Shown: positions 35,801 through 41,800 of the stretch, piece by piece
How the letters are laid out: each line of letters starts with the position of its first letter
How positions within the stretch are numbered: the stretch's first letter is position 1
NCBI RefSeq assembly: GCF_057098645.1
Contig: NZ_CM169472.1
Reading direction: 5' to 3' (one strand)
DNA length: 64,000 nucleotides
Position numbers: made by a program

Positions 35801-38800
35801 ACCTACGCGCAGGCCTGGAGCAATACTTTTACTGAACGAGCTGCACAACAGCACTCGCCCGTCGATATCCCAGGAATGAATGGTCCGCGGGCGCGGATAC
35901 TCCGTTGCCAGTTCGCCGTAGACATCATCTTCAAAAATCACAATATCATGACGCTGAGCGAGAGAGAGAACGGCCCGTTTGCGCGCGTCCGGCATAATAA
36001 ATCCCAGCGGATTATTACAGTTTGGCACCAGAATGATGCCTTTAATCGGCCACTGTTCCAGCGCCAGTTCCAGCGCTTCAACGCTGATGCCTGTTTCTGG
36101 ATCGGTTGGGATTTCAATCACTTTCACGCCCATGCCGCGCAGCATCTGCATTGAACCGTAGTAACAGGGGGATTCGACCGCGACAATATCGCCCGGTTTA
36201 CACACCGCCATTAACGCCATCGACATCGAGTTATGGCAGCCGCTGGTGATGATGATGTCATCGGCGGTGACCACCGAGCCGCTGTCGAGCATCAGGCGGG
36301 CAATTTGCTCTCGCAACACTCGCTGACCGGCTAACAAGTCATAACCGAGAACGGTTTGCAGATTATGCTGTACCACCCGGCTTAGCTCCCGCCAGAGTGG
36401 TTTCAGGCTGGGCGTTTCGACATCCGGCGTGCTTTTGCTTAATGGAACAATGGAACTGTCGCTATGCGCCTCCAGCATATCCAGTACCTGATCCCACTGG
36501 GTAATTTCCACCGGGCGCTGCACCGGACGCGTCATCGGCGGCACTGGCGGCTGGGCTTTACGTTGTGCGACAAAATACCCCGAACGCGGCTGCGGAGTGA
36601 TGAGCTTCATCGTCTCCAGCGTCTGATACGCCTGCTGCACGGTGCTGATGCTGACGCCGTGCTCCTGACTTAAGCTGCGCACCGACGGCAATTTCTCCCC
36701 GTGACGATACAGCCCTTGCTCAATCCGCTCGGCAAGCAGAGTTGCCAGATGTTGATAACGCGTCATGCTGTATTCCTTATTTGGACCATACAGAGAGAAA
36801 AACCGGTACAGATGAGGCTAAAAAACCGGATGCAGATGCTGTTTTAACCTGTCTGTATGTTAAATAAAACTAATATTTGCATCTGTATTGTGAACTGCCA
36901 GAAGACGGATGATGAAGCCTCTGAAAGATGAGGAGGCAGCAGATGGAATTTCACGAAAACAAAGCCAAAACGCCGTTTATCAGACTTGTGCAACTCTGGC
37001 AGGCGGTGAGGCGTTGGCGGCGGCAAATGCAGACCCGACGAGTGTTACAGCAGATGAGTGATGAGCGGTTGAGGGATATCGGGTTACGCAGGGAGGATGT
37101 GGAGTGAACTATGGGCGGCGTGTTGGCAAATGCTGCCTGTCTGCATTCAAAATTGCTACAAAATCCAACCATAAAAGTCGTTTACAACATATTTTTCTGA
37201 TTTACATACAGATAATGACCTGAGCTGTCTCACTGGGGGTCATCATCTATGCGTCCGGGGGATCTGTCACAAAAAGGAATAGAACAAAATCATCAGCGGT
37301 GAATAAAGCGATTCGTTTTAGATCACATTAATAAAATTTTTGTATCAAAAATTAGTTATCGCGCTCACAGTTCATAATGAAACAATTCTCTGCAAATAGA
37401 TAACCGAAGCTTCGTTGCTAGTATCAATTCGCTAATTATACACCTGCCAGAGGATACAATGAAAAATAGAAATCGTATGATCGTGAACTGTGTTACTGCT
37501 TCCCTGATGTATTATTGGAGCTTACCTGCACTGGCTGAGCAGTCGTCAAGTGAGATAAAGATTGTTCGCGATGAATACGGCATGCCGCATATTTATGCCA
37601 ATGATACATGGCACCTATTTTATGGCTATGGCTATGTAGTAGCACAAGATCGCCTTTTTCAGATGGAAATGGCACGTCGCAGTACTCAAGGGACTGTCGC
37701 GGAAGTGCTTGGCAAAGATTTTGTGAAATTTGATAAAGATATCCGTCGTAACTACTGGCCGGATGCTATCCGGGCGCAAATTGCTGCCCTTTCCCCAGAG
37801 GATATGTCCATTCTGCAAGGCTACGCTGATGGAATGAATGCCTGGATTGATAAGGTAAATACCAATCCAGAGACGCTCTTACCAAAACAGTTTAATACAT
37901 TTGGCTTTACTCCTAAGCGCTGGGAACCGTTTGATGTCGCGATGATATTTGTGGGCACCATGGCAAACCGCTTCTCTGATAGCACTAGCGAAATTGATAA
38001 TCTGGCACTGCTAACGGCTTTAAAAGATAAATATGGTGTATCACAAGGCATGGCGGTATTTAATCAGTTGAAATGGCTGGTAAACCCATCAGCGCCAACC
38101 ACTATTGCCGTACAAGAGAGTAGCTACCCACTTAAATTTAATCAGCAAAACTCGCAAACAGCAGCTCTGTTGCCACGCTACGATTTACCTGCACCAATGC
38201 TTGACCGACCAGCAAAAGGGGCGGATGGCGCACTGCTGGCGTTAACAGCAGGGAAGAACCGGGAAACTATTGCTGCACAATTTGCACAGGGTGGTGCCAA
38301 TGGTCTGGCGGGGTATCCAACGACCAGCAATATGTGGGTGATCGGCAAAAGCAAAGCCCAGGATGCGAAAGCAATCATGGTAAATGGTCCGCAGTTTGGC
38401 TGGTATGCGCCTGCGTATACTTATGGTATTGGTCTGCACGGTGCTGGTTATGATGTCACTGGCAATACACCATTTGCCTATCCTGGGCTGGTTTTTGGTC
38501 ATAATGGTGTGATTTCCTGGGGATCAACGGCAGGTTTCGGCGATGATGTCGATATTTTTGCTGAACGGCTGTCGGCAGAGAAACCAGGCTACTACTTGCA
38601 TAATGGTAAGTGGGTGAAAATGTTAAGCCGTGAAGAAACCATTATGGTGAAAAATGGTCAGGCAGAGACCTTTACTGTCTGGCGCACGGTGCATGGCAAC
38701 ATTATCCAAACTGACCAGACGACACAAACGGCTTACGCTAAATCCCGCGCCTGGGATGGTAAAGAGGTGGCGTCTTTGCTGGCCTGGACTCATCAGATGA

Positions 38801-41800
38801 AGGCCAAAAATTGGCAGGAGTGGACACAGCAGGCAGCAAAACAAGCACTGACCATCAACTGGTACTATGCTGATGTGAACGGCAATATTGGTTATGTTCA
38901 TACTGGTGCTTATCCGGATCGTCAATCAGGCCATGATCCGCGATTACCCGTTCCTGGCACGGGAAAATGGGACTGGAAAGGGCTATTGCCTTTTGAAATG
39001 AACCCTAAGGTGTATAACCCCCAGTCGGGATATATTGCTAACTGGAACAATTCTCCCCAAAAAGATTATCCCGCTTCGGATCTGTTTGCCTTTTTGTGGG
39101 GTGGTGCAGATCGCGTTACGGAGATCGACCGACTGCTTGAGCAAAAGCCACGCTTAACTGCTGATCAGGCATGGGATGTTATTCGCCAAACCAGTCGTCA
39201 GGATCTTAACCTGAGGCTTTTTTTACCTACTCTGCAAGCAGCGACATCTGGTTTGACACAGAGCGATCCGCGCCGTCAGTTGGTGGATACATTAACACGT
39301 TGGGATGGCATCAATTTGCTTAATGATGATGGTAAAACCTGGCAGCAGCCAGGCTCTGCCATCCTGAACGTTTGGCTGACCAGTATGTTGAAGCGTACCG
39401 TAGTGGCTGTTGTACCTATGCCATTTGATAAGTGGTACAGCGCCAGTGGCTACGAAACAACCTAGGACGGTCCAACTGGTTCGCTGAATATAAGTGTTGG
39501 AGCAAAAATTTTGTATGAGGCGGTGCAGGGAGACAAATCACCAATCCCACAGGCGGTTGATCTGTTTGCCGGGAAATCACAGCAGGAGGTTGTGTTGGCT
39601 GCGCTGGAAGATACCTGGGAGACTCTTTCCAAACGCTATGGCAATAATGTGAGTAACTGGAAAACACCTGCAATGGCCTTAACGTTCCGGGCAAATAATT
39701 TCTTTGGCGTACCGCAGGCCGCAGCGGAAGAAGCGCGTCATCAGGCGGAGTATCAAAACCGTGGAACAGAAAACGATATGATTGTCTTCTCACCAACGAC
39801 AAGCGATCGTCCGGTGCTTGCCTGGGATGTGGTCGCACCCGGTCAGAGTGGATTTATTGCTCCCGATGGAACAGTTGATAAGCACTATGAAGATCAGCTG
39901 AAAATGTACGAAAATTTTGGTCGTAAGTCGCTCTGGTTAACGAAGCAGGATGTGGAGGCGCATAAGGAGTCGCAGGAAGTGTTGCACGTTCAGAGATAAT
40001 TAAGCCCGAAAGCCCTCATATTCAGGAGGAATATGAGGGTGATAAAGTCTCAGGTATTGTGATGTTGGAGGGCTGGTTACTTTTTGAGTTCCGCAAACGC
40101 CGCCCGAATCTCTTCCTCCGGCAACTGAATCCCGATAAACACCATCGTGCTATGCGGTTTTTCATCGCCCCACGGGCGGTCCCAGTCGGCGCTGTAGAGG
40201 CGCTGGACGCCCTGGAACAGCAGGCGGTTAGGTTCGCCGTCAATCCACAGCATCCCTTTGTAACGCAGCAGTTTATCTGCCGATTCCAGCAGCAGGTTTT
40301 CCATCACCCGGGAAACTTCGCTGATATCTACCGGGTAATCCAGTTCCACCACAATCGACGAAATATCGTTTTGTTTATCCGCGATAAAGTGGAAACGCGG
40401 TTTGGTGCTGACGACGTTCTCTTCCAGCATAAAACCGTTGGTGTTGAACAGCAGGCCCAGGTCGATGTCGCCGTGGGTGACGGTGTAGACCGGTGCACGG
40501 GCGTTGATGCGCGCCAGGCGTTCGCGCAGTTTTTCTGCTTCGCCTGCGACGTCGGTTTTGGTCAGCAGAATACGGTCGGCGTAGCCAACCTGGGACTGGG
40601 CGATGGTGAACTGATTCATCTGCTCATCGGCATGTACCGCATCCACCAGCGCAATCACGCCGTCCAGCAGGTAACGCTGGCATAAAATCTCATGGGAGAA
40701 AAAGGTCTGAATAATCGGGCCGGGATCGGCCATGCCGGTGCATTCAATGACCAGACGATCGAACTGAATATTGCCCTTATCGAGATTATCCAGCAGGTCG
40801 AGTAGTGCGTCTTCCAGCTCGTTGGAGCGCGAACAGCAGATGCAGCCGTTGGTCAGCGTTTTGATCTGCGTGGCGCGGTCGCCAATCAATTGATCATCAA
40901 CGGAGACTTCGCCGAATTCGTTTTCAATCACGGCAATCTTGTAGCCGTGTTGTTCGTTAAGAATATGGCGCAGCAGGGTGGTTTTGCCCGCGCCTAAAAA
41001 ACCGGTGAGTAGGGTAACTGCAATCGGGTTCATGCTCTCTCCATTAACAACAGCGCATACCGCCTTTACCATCGCCGCCGTAGCGCGCGTTCTGGCGTTC
41101 GCGGAAGAATTCTTCATAGCTCATGTACGGCTTGTCGGGATGGTTGGTCTTCATATGCTCGACGTAGTTGTCGTAGTCTGGAATGCCAATCAACATCTTT
41201 GCCGCCTGGCCGAGATATTTTTTTGCCTGTCCTAAGTTACCAAACATAGTTCACTCTGATAAGAACAAAGCCCCGCCGAAGCGGGGCTAAACACGGTTAG
41301 TGGTGCGAAGAGATCTTCACGCCGCCTTCCGGGATTGGAACGTACGGTGTTTCTTTGTCAGTACGTTTGTCGCTGTTACGCACCGCAAGCCACGTTTTGA
41401 AACCGTAGAAGATGATGCTGTACACCACAATCAGGAACAGAATACTCAGGCCTGCGTTGGTGTAGTTGTTCACAACGATGTGGTTCATGTTGGCAATCTG
41501 CTGCGCCGTCAGGTCAGTACCGTTAGCAATCTTCTCTTTGTACTGGCTTGCCATGTAGAAGAAGCCTTCCATCTGCGGGTTGGTGCTGAACAGTTTCAGG
41601 CCCAGCGCCCAGGTGGTGCAGATAAGCAGCCATACAGCCGGAACAACAGTTACCCAGATGTATTGGGTGCGCTTCATCTTAATCAGCACAACGGTACCCA
41701 GTACCAGCGCTACGGCTGCCAGCATCTGGTTGGAGATACCGAACAGCGGCCACAGGCTCTTAACGCCGCCCAGCGGATCGACCACGCCCTGATACAGCAG

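Follow-up and report, generated by a model that had tools for sequence, protein, structure and literature searches.

A pac allele of the immigration control region with an amber-interrupted penicillin G acylase gene in Escherichia coli assigned to O145:H28

The window (the whole 64-kb stretch of DNA analysed, from contig NZ_CM169472.1 of assembly GCF_057098645.1) displayed the following features at and around the yjiS–yjiA interval, with coordinates counted from the first nucleotide of the window:

35354–36766, minus strand: yjiR, a 470-aa ORF encoding a GntR/aminotransferase fusion, annotated as yjiR in RM13514 and having a K-12 homologue; a conserved framework gene on the left side of the hotspot
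36943–37107, plus strand: yjiS (DUF1127), the left anchor, with its TGA stop codon ending at 37107
37108–40090, no strand: the pac cassette of 2,983 bp, which in this pac allele makes up the variable part of the immigration control region (ICR), with breakpoints placed by blastn, junction searches, and junction alignment
37108–37458, plus strand: the 351-bp pac upstream regulatory region, 38% GC, matching E. coli W at 349 of 351 positions
37309–37347, plus strand: a putative PaaX-operator-like sequence from a pattern scan
37459–39999, plus strand: pac, penicillin G acylase (PGA) precursor gene of 846 codons, amber-interrupted, recognized by translation and by Pfam and PDB matches
37459–37536, plus strand: pac signal peptide
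37537–38163, plus strand: pac alpha subunit, matching PDB chain 1ai4_A (residues 27–235)
38164–38325, plus strand: pac spacer
38326–39996, plus strand: pac beta subunit, matching PDB chain 1gk9_B (residues 290–846)
39463–39465, plus strand: in-frame TAG at pac codon 669 (beta-subunit residue 380), seen on translation
40013–40039, no strand: hairpin with a perfect 11-bp stem and a 5-nt loop (inverted-repeat search and RNA fold)
40077–41033, minus strand: yjiA (CobW-family GTPase), the right anchor, convergent with pac
41044–43447, minus strand: yjiX and btsT, conserved
43840–55017, no strand: hpa cluster (hpaC, B, A, X, I, H, F, D, E, G, and R) for 4-hydroxyphenylacetate catabolism, a second accessory segment, located between btsT and tsr

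The first-pass annotation had placed yjiS, a gap of about 350 bp, pac, and yjiA in this order, and its coordinates and order agreed with the ORF list, the translation, and the RefSeq annotation of the near-identical O145:H28 strain RM13514; the gaps were 351 bp between yjiS and pac and 77 bp between pac and yjiA (ORF list and translation). yjiA, yjiX, and btsT constituted a 3.4-kb conserved core between pac and the hpa cluster. The pac cassette had a GC content of 46.8%, compared to 51–55% for its flanks.

In the K-12 MG1655 annotation, yjiT, yjiV, mcrC, mcrB, symE, symR, hsdS, hsdM, hsdR, and mrr were located between yjiS and yjiA, which is the gene content that the first-pass annotation had listed. 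The homology of the window to K-12 (blastn) stopped at the yjiS stop codon (37107) and restarted at 40091, leaving out the 3′-terminal 14 nt of yjiA, and thus the last four to five codons of yjiA were allele-specific: AELKK in the window and AGLRK in K-12. The same two breakpoints were obtained against O157:H7, and the junction queries broke at precisely 37107 and 40091 in genomes lacking the cassette. The K-12 ICR and the window shared the same slot, the same anchors yjiS and yjiA, and sharp homology breaks, but where K-12 has 16 kb of defence content, the window had nothing but a 3-kb metabolic cassette. The ICR of O157:H7 Sakai, with the same anchors and breakpoints, contained GmrSD-like, symE, Type IB hsdSMR, and DUF262/HNH genes; O157:H7 thus kept a defence cassette and had no pac, and the hpa cluster was absent from both O157:H7 and K-12.

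The interval therefore lay in a slot bounded by yjiS and yjiA, with conserved flanks, abrupt and shared boundaries, and defence genes as alternative occupants in K-12 and O157:H7. It corresponds to an ICR allele that is already known, the pac allele, a replaceable cassette; the cassette concept has been described (PMC3874165, PMC2481252, and PMC12707154), the ICR was treated by Sibley and Raleigh (2004) as cited in these same three papers, and Archer et al. (2011; PMC3032704) reported the yjiS–pac–yjiA arrangement in E. coli W. The ORF list and the repeat search showed no IS element, integrase, or significant terminal repeat at the cassette. Because the breakpoints were sharp and shared and such elements were missing, we infer that the cassettes were exchanged via homologous recombination in the flanks. 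A 26-nt direct repeat (37079–37104 and 39932–39957; 77% identical) was considered as a mobile-element mark and rejected as being at chance level: its longest exact run was 11 nt, and about 1.6 such matches would be expected by chance per 3.7-kb region.

The lack of hsd, mcr, mrr, and sym genes in the interval, as claimed in the first-pass annotation, was borne out by four kinds of searches: (i) tblastn with K-12 proteins gave no homologue of YjiT, YjiV, McrB, McrC, SymE, HsdS, HsdM, HsdR, or Mrr in the whole 64-kb window, with a best value of E = 0.14 for a 21-residue chance match (YjiS) and E = 0.34 or worse for HsdRMS, McrBC, Mrr, and SymE, while the anchors YjiS and YjiA were recovered at 93% and 99%, respectively; (ii) blastn of the 16-kb K-12 island DNA against the window gave a 73-nt REP-like sequence (43497–43569) as the sole match; (iii) PADLOC assigned zero defence families to pac, yjiS, and the antisense ORFs; and (iv) Rfam, applied to the region at E <= 1 and to the whole window at gathering thresholds, found no SymR and nothing credible. 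The cassette carried no restriction or other defence gene, and therefore the slot does not encode the EcoKI, McrBC, Mrr, and SymE/SymR functions. It is scarcely conceivable that the 351-bp spacer or the ORFs running antisense to pac hide an unrecognised defence function: most strains have a defence island in the slot (PMC12707154), and antisense ORFs of 76–140 aa were present, but these ORFs were entirely contained in a conserved protein-coding gene, many genomes have no further RefSeq annotation there, and neither PADLOC nor Rfam gave a match in the interval.

The missing restriction at yjiS–yjiA is not equivalent to missing defence, and the first-pass annotation was incomplete in this respect, because RM13514 and E. 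coli W both carry defence genes in the leuX island: (i) phosphorothioate-dependent restriction endonuclease, type II Zorya, and large helicase genes in RM13514, just upstream of the window, and (ii) hsdS/hsdM plus McrBC-family genes in W. A restriction phenotype different from that of K-12, as had been proposed, is plausible; in the SMRT methylomes of two O145:H28 strains, Dam was the sole methylase apart from a prophage PstI methylase in one of them, and Type I motifs were lacking (PMC3893438).

The cassette of E. coli W (ATCC 9637) was the same, with identical junctions and spacer lengths (351 bp and 77 bp). pac differed from that of W at 26/2,541 nt (99.0% identical), the upstream spacer at 2/351, and the downstream spacer at 1/77. 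Compared to W, the window displayed the following variations: pac was interrupted by the codon-669 amber stop and had seven other amino-acid differences; the 36500–36999 bin was 88.8% identical; the yjiR–yjiS spacer was 176 nt rather than 131 nt; and the host background was O145:H28 STEC. For W, the literature places the hpa cluster on the far side of btsT, and the W locus compared here ended inside btsT. The resemblance to W-type strains noted in the first-pass annotation therefore held for the gene arrangement and the spacers but not for the lineage: the window was 99.9–100% identical to O145:H28 STEC genomes and was assigned by this identity to the O145:H28 Shiga-toxin lineage, and the allele itself is common.

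Left-junction, right-junction, and pac-fragment searches were applied to 5,426 complete E. coli genomes; the left junction was intact in 1,073/5,426, the right junction in 1,071/5,426, and the pac fragment was present in 1,072/5,426, giving a pac cassette with identical junctions in approximately 1,070 of the 5,426 genomes (20%). pac was also annotated at this slot in hundreds of RefSeq genomes. An adjacent hpa cluster was carried by all but one of the pac genomes (1,071/1,072), and thus E. coli pac was essentially nested within hpa presence. The occurrence of pac only together with hpa may reflect functional coupling or co-transfer of a pac–hpa module for scavenging aromatic acids.

Outside E. 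coli, six Kluyvera species carried pac in this slot, with yjiR–yjiS beside pac at three loci and yjiA beside pac at four; both yjiR–yjiS and yjiA adjoined pac in K. intermedia, and yjiA adjoined pac in Lelliottia. The PGA proteins of Kluyvera and Lelliottia were 80–87% identical, while flanking orthologues were 57–96% identical, and the GC content of their pac genes was 58–59%, equal to that of the flanks. K. intermedia and Lelliottia had an extra 196-aa ORF between pac and yjiA, and K. intermedia had another ORF between yjiS and pac. Lelliottia, the only one of these loci extending past btsT, had no hpaC beside btsT. Since pac also sits between these anchors in Kluyvera and beside yjiA in Lelliottia, the wording "absent island" is K-12-centred and is not evidence of recent loss.

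A recent deletion of the restriction island, or its replacement by a new pac, in the O145:H28 lineage alone is unlikely. Two observations favor such an event: O157:H7, from the same lineage as O145:H28 (PMC3893438), has a full defence cassette and no hpa, and the cassette GC is lower than that of the flanks; however, the same cassette with both junctions is found in about one-fifth of complete E. coli genomes, including the phylogenetically distant W, and pac in Kluyvera (same slot) and Lelliottia (beside yjiA) matches its flanks in GC and falls within the flank range in PGA identity. The wide spread in E. coli together with the Kluyvera and Lelliottia pac genes indicates that the pac allele is old, and the O145:H28 ancestor would at most have received pac by recombination.

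The pac product matched Pfam PF01804 (Penicil_amidase) with E = 1.3e-128, and its precursor layout was signal peptide, alpha subunit, spacer, and beta subunit, with the nucleophile Ser290 as beta residue 1 in the motif TTS-NMWVIG. NCBIfam gave only a weak PvdQ match, and so the identification as PGA was based on Pfam and PDB. Codon 669 was TAG in the window, while it was CAG (Gln) in RM13514 and RM9872, and W also has Gln at this position. With the amber stop, the 557-residue beta subunit loses its 178 C-terminal residues (32% of the beta chain), and hence the complete 846-codon frame with a full 557-residue beta subunit, as assumed when the first-pass annotation treated pac as intact, was absent; beyond the TAG, the frame was open to the normal stop codon at 39997–39999. 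None of the 1,072 pac-carrying complete genomes had an exact match to the 69-nt stretch around the TAG. The exact 668-aa truncated product nevertheless occurred in independent assemblies (13–25 contigs from NCBI, ENA, and Logan), where one 6.3-kb locus was identical to the window.

A second disrupted gene was observed elsewhere in the window: yjiN was frameshifted by an extra C within a C run at 31515, and the exact truncated YjiN product was found on about 24 contigs of separate NCBI, ENA, and Logan assemblies. Assemblies with the truncated products included GCA_029357705.1, ERR8531222, and SRR5033736.

Errors of sequencing or assembly are an extremely improbable source of the TAG and the yjiN frameshift: a C run is a typical error context, and the TAG occurred in no complete genome, but the exact truncated PGA and YjiN products were each recovered on about 24 contigs of separate assemblies from different runs. 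Since the same truncated product recurs in independent assemblies, the amber pac is, as judged from sequence, a real pseudogene of a sub-lineage.

Very unlikely, too, is a reading in which pac is intact and functional as in W, so that the locus would trade restriction for an active penicillin acylase. The frame remains open past the TAG to the normal stop with only the seven other amino-acid differences from W, the pac upstream region is nearly the same as in W, and UAG near-cognate read-through or an amber suppressor of the supE type would most plausibly insert Gln, the wild-type residue. Against this reading, the TAG is present both in the window and in independent assemblies, basal UAG read-through is low in wild-type E. 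coli, and the truncated product lacks about one-third of its beta chain. A literature search on C-terminal truncation of PGA returned only single surface substitutions, which are able to block maturation. Judged by the truncation, active penicillin acylase is most probably not made in this sub-lineage.

The pac promoter is weak and CRP-dependent. A sigma-70 promoter scan gave no strong plus-strand match upstream of pac and was uninformative. CRP-like half-sites, as consensus matches only, were located at 37312 and 37354. The sequence CGATTC-N27-GTATCA at 37309–37347 matched the PaaX operator consensus TGATTC-N27-GAATCA (PMC9493321) at 10/12 positions with exact spacing and is a candidate PaaX-binding site; the scan background was 25 matches with <=2 mismatches over seven spacings in 64 kb, corresponding to approximately 0.2 expected per 450-bp region. 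The hairpin at 40013–40039, inside the cassette and between the convergent pac and yjiA, had a predicted folding energy of -20.4 kcal/mol (z = -3.07) and is probably a bidirectional terminator.

Taken together, it is highly probable that the slot holds the ICR pac allele without a defence gene, swapped by recombination in the flanks, with pac amber-truncated and most probably inactive. The ICR is a hypervariable slot bounded by yjiS and yjiA, in which whole cassettes would be exchanged through homologous recombination in the flanking regions. In the O145:H28 cassette, pac is preceded by a promoter region, with CRP-like sites and a PaaX-like operator, and followed by a probable hairpin terminator. 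An intact pac product is a periplasmic, self-processing Ntn-hydrolase releasing phenylacetate or hydroxyphenylacetate from esters and amides, and the freed acids enter the paa pathway and the hpa pathway, the latter encoded 3.8 kb away. The CAG-to-TAG change at codon 669 shortens the predicted beta subunit by 178 residues and would most probably leave the enzyme inactive. A further, tentative possibility, which we hold to be somewhat less probable than its opposite, is that pac was an old and perhaps ancestral occupant of the slot, shared with Kluyvera and Lelliottia, with the K-12 and O157:H7 restriction cassettes as derived replacements, that pac and hpa were coupled or co-transferred, and that the amber pac and the yjiN frameshift represent starting decay under relaxed selection.

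Little of this arrangement is new: the ICR is a textbook case of a replaceable defence cassette, the replacement by pac in W was published in 2011, and the yjiS–pac–yjiA order is common; what the first-pass annotation missed was the truncated pac. The amber pac is a warning that gene presence alone does not prove PGA activity. The amber pac and the frameshifted yjiN could serve as lineage markers for one sub-lineage. O145:H28 STEC without EcoKI-, McrBC-, and Mrr-type barriers at yjiS–yjiA bears on genetic tractability and gene uptake in these strains.

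The yjiS–yjiA interval, i.e., the slot of the immigration control region (ICR), was resolved from the six-frame ORF list and direct translation, and it displayed the following organization.

Features of the yjiS–yjiA interval
36943-37107, plus strand: yjiS (54 aa, DUF1127)
351 bp, between yjiS and pac: AT-rich spacer
37459-39999, plus strand: pac, the penicillin G acylase (PGA) reading frame
77 bp, between pac and yjiA: spacer
40077-41033, minus strand: yjiA, convergent to pac

The limits 36943-40076 and the gap of about 350 bp proposed in the first-pass annotation were therefore accurate. 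The same interval of MG1655 was annotated with yjiT, yjiV, mcrC, mcrB, symE, symR, hsdS, hsdM, hsdR, and mrr (~16 kb), which was the content that had been listed for K-12. When the translated K-12 island genes together with YjiS and YjiA were searched by tblastn (E up to 10) against the whole 64-kb window, only YjiS (93%) and YjiA (99%) gave matches, and no homologue of the island proteins was found over these 64 kb (best E = 0.34). PADLOC models matched none of PGA, YjiS, and the longer antisense ORFs, and an Rfam scan returned neither SymR nor any other family; these searches together bore out the absence of hsd, mcr, mrr, and sym genes at the locus. The sole blastn similarity of K-12 island DNA to the window was a 73-nt REP-like match at 43497-43569 (86% identity, reverse strand, to the K-12 hsdM–hsdR intergenic region), probably a REP/BIME-type repeat.

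K-12 homology ran exactly to the final base of the yjiS stop codon (37107) and restarted at 40091, 14 nt inside the yjiA 3' end. Alignment of the window, E. coli W, K-12, and O157:H7 displayed the same two breakpoints, and the YjiA C-terminus was allele-specific in the pac alleles. When 100-nt queries centred on each junction were searched in all 5,426 complete E. coli genomes, the left and right junctions were intact in 1,073 and 1,071 genomes, respectively, while in cassette-less genomes the match broke off exactly at query position 50 (left) or started at position 51 (right); a pac fragment was found in 1,072 genomes, and at least 80% of a 3.6-kb query was covered in one place in 1,067. Thus, 37108-40090 (2,983 bp) is a discrete cassette present in ~20% of sequenced E. 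coli. Its GC content was 46.8% (51-55% in the flanks), and the ORF list and a repeat search disclosed no IS element, integrase, or significant terminal repeat within it. This behaviour matches that described for the ICR, for which a 2025 review names "penicillinase" among the non-defence occupants (PMC12707154), and yjiS–pac–yjiA is a common, previously described allele of this well-known hotspot. One of the ~1,072 pac copies, with both junctions, lay on a record classed as plasmid rather than chromosome. In O157:H7 Sakai, which has a lineage in common with O145:H28 (PMC3893438), this slot was filled by a full defence cassette, comprising two GmrSD/DUF262-type genes, symE, Type IB hsdSMR, and a DUF262/HNH pair.

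The region 36700-40300 was compared by megablast with the same 5,426 genomes, and the best matches (1 mismatch in 3,601 nt) were exclusively O145:H28 or O145:NM Shiga-toxin-producing strains, e.g., RM13514, RM12581, and RM9872; a 25-kb query gave the same outcome. Base-by-base comparison with RM13514 over 64 kb disclosed ~35 SNPs and three or four indels, and ~16 differences were private to the window relative to both RM13514 and RM9872; judged from these sequences, the window derives from an O145:H28-lineage strain outside the complete-genome set. The W-type resemblance noted at first pass held for gene order, as E. coli W shared yjiS, 351 bp, pac, 77 bp, and yjiA (26 of 2,541 nt different in pac, two positions in the 351-bp spacer, and one in the 77-bp spacer), but not for lineage.

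The pac gene had been treated as intact, but its translation (37459-39999) was interrupted once, by an in-frame TAG at codon 669 (39463-39465), beyond which the frame was open to the normal stop. RM13514 and RM9872 instead had C at 39463 (CAG, Gln), and codon 669 of E. coli W also specified Gln; the 69-nt stretch around the TAG had an exact match in 0 of the 1,072 pac-carrying complete genomes. Matches to solved structures placed the alpha subunit at residues 27-235 and the beta subunit at 290-846, and therefore the stop fell at beta residue 380, removing 178 of 557 beta residues. An assembly artefact was ruled out by recurrence: the exact 668-aa product was found in independent NCBI, ENA, and Logan assemblies (13-25 contigs), among them a 6.3-kb locus that did not differ from the window and an 8-kb locus with one base different. 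The same assemblies carried a frameshift in yjiN (DUF445; 31147-32428): compared with RM13514 and RM9872, the C-run at 31515 was longer by one C, which split the gene into two overlapping ORFs.

ORFs of the split yjiN
31147-31554: first ORF as listed
31478-32560: second ORF as listed (annotated yjiN start, 32428)

The exact 316-aa truncated YjiN was found in ~24 contigs of other assemblies, and its recurrence in pac-amber samples marks the frameshift as a real mutation of a sub-lineage. Given the co-occurrence of both lesions, the sub-lineage is real and has acquired two inactivating mutations close to the ICR. PGA activity would be lost, although Gln is the residue most plausibly inserted by an amber suppressor or by rare read-through, which would restore the wild-type sequence at this position.

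As the first-pass annotation inferred, EcoKI, McrBC, Mrr, and SymE/SymR could not be encoded at this locus, no homologues having been found. In published SMRT methylomes of two O145:H28 strains, no Type I motif was seen, and Dam was accompanied only by a prophage-borne PstI-type methylase in one of the two (PMC3893438). In RM13514, the closest complete genome, the leuX–nanC island (5396000-5444100), directly upstream of the window, carried type II Zorya (zorA2, zorB2, and zorE), a restriction endonuclease dependent on phosphorothioate, several DEAD/DEAH helicase genes of very large size, and an STY4851/ECs_5259-family gene. The corresponding site of E. coli W had hsdS/hsdM and McrBC-family genes. 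Therefore, the chromosome is not defence-free, and defence in the O145:H28 lineage resides at the neighbouring hotspot rather than in the ICR.

A complete hpa cluster (4-hydroxyphenylacetate catabolism), absent from K-12 and O157:H7, followed on the right.

Catabolic cluster to the right of yjiA
43840-55017: hpa cluster, between btsT and tsr

A 7-kb query (38500-45500), for which 80% coverage demanded pac, the yjiA–btsT core, and hpa together, was matched in 1,071 genomes. hpaB alone was present in 2,071 of 5,426; hence, 1,071 of the 1,072 pac-bearing genomes were hpa-positive, about half of the hpa-positive genomes had no pac, and pac was therefore nested within hpa. This pattern may come from physical linkage and shared ancestry, and it is also in keeping with the published proposal that PGA, under PaaX control, scavenges phenylacetyl compounds for aromatic-acid catabolism (PMC9493321); O145:H28 was reported with phenylacetate-degradation genes (PMC3893438). 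A putative PaaX operator was located at 37309-37347 (10/12 consensus match, exact N27 spacing), and a hairpin with a perfect 11-bp stem (-20.4 kcal/mol, z = -3.07) between pac and yjiA is a candidate terminator.

Further variation was observed elsewhere in the window: (i) near the hotspot, an Rpn-family recombination-promoting nuclease gene (rpnD, yjiPQ homologue; ~34168-35112) was a pseudogene, with an internal stop in O145:H28 per RefSeq and only a 258-aa ORF left (34336-35112), while W had an intact copy, K-12 likewise a pseudogene, and O157:H7 a frameshifted copy, and its region was the most divergent stretch of the left flank (87-95% identity); (ii) a pentapeptide-repeat protein gene (EspX6-like T3SS effector; ~26359-28527) varied in repeat register relative to RM13514 and RM9872, with 24-nt and 6-nt indels and a SNP cluster at 26510-26625; (iii) a 5.2-kb inverse autotransporter gene iatD (~18553-23793) lay between kptA and yjiJ, which were adjacent in E. 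coli W, making iatD another accessory segment; and (iv) the tsr–lgoD stretch (~56843-63027) contained a three-gene TRAP transporter, a Na+/H+ antiporter, and a GntR regulator, while K-12 and O157:H7 had lgoT–lgoR there, making it a third variable segment.

A single scan, covering one genome for each bacterial species and based on a degenerate form of the catalytic motif T-S-N-M-W-V-I-G-K, recovered pac from six Kluyvera species, two Buttiauxella, Lelliottia, a Citrobacter, an Enterobacter MAG, and three betaproteobacteria; two further motif matches had no PGA homology. In Kluyvera and Lelliottia, pac occupied the same slot: Kluyvera pac adjoined yjiR–yjiS in three loci and yjiA in four (both in K. 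intermedia), and yjiA adjoined pac in Lelliottia; K. intermedia and Lelliottia had an additional small ORF between pac and yjiA. Kluyvera/Lelliottia PGA was 80-87% identical to that of the window, inside the range of flanking orthologues (YjiS 57-62%, YjiR 79-80%, YjiA 91%, BtsT 93-94%, and YjiX 91-96%), and pac had the same GC content as its flanks in both genera, which argues that pac at this slot is old. "Absence of the K-12 island" is K-12-centred wording and not evidence for a recent deletion. The first-pass observation is confirmed and its interpretation largely right, but the wrong strain type was named and the amber stop overlooked; what is new is minor, namely the amber-truncated pac sub-lineage, the quantified nesting of pac in hpa, and the Kluyvera/Lelliottia synteny.
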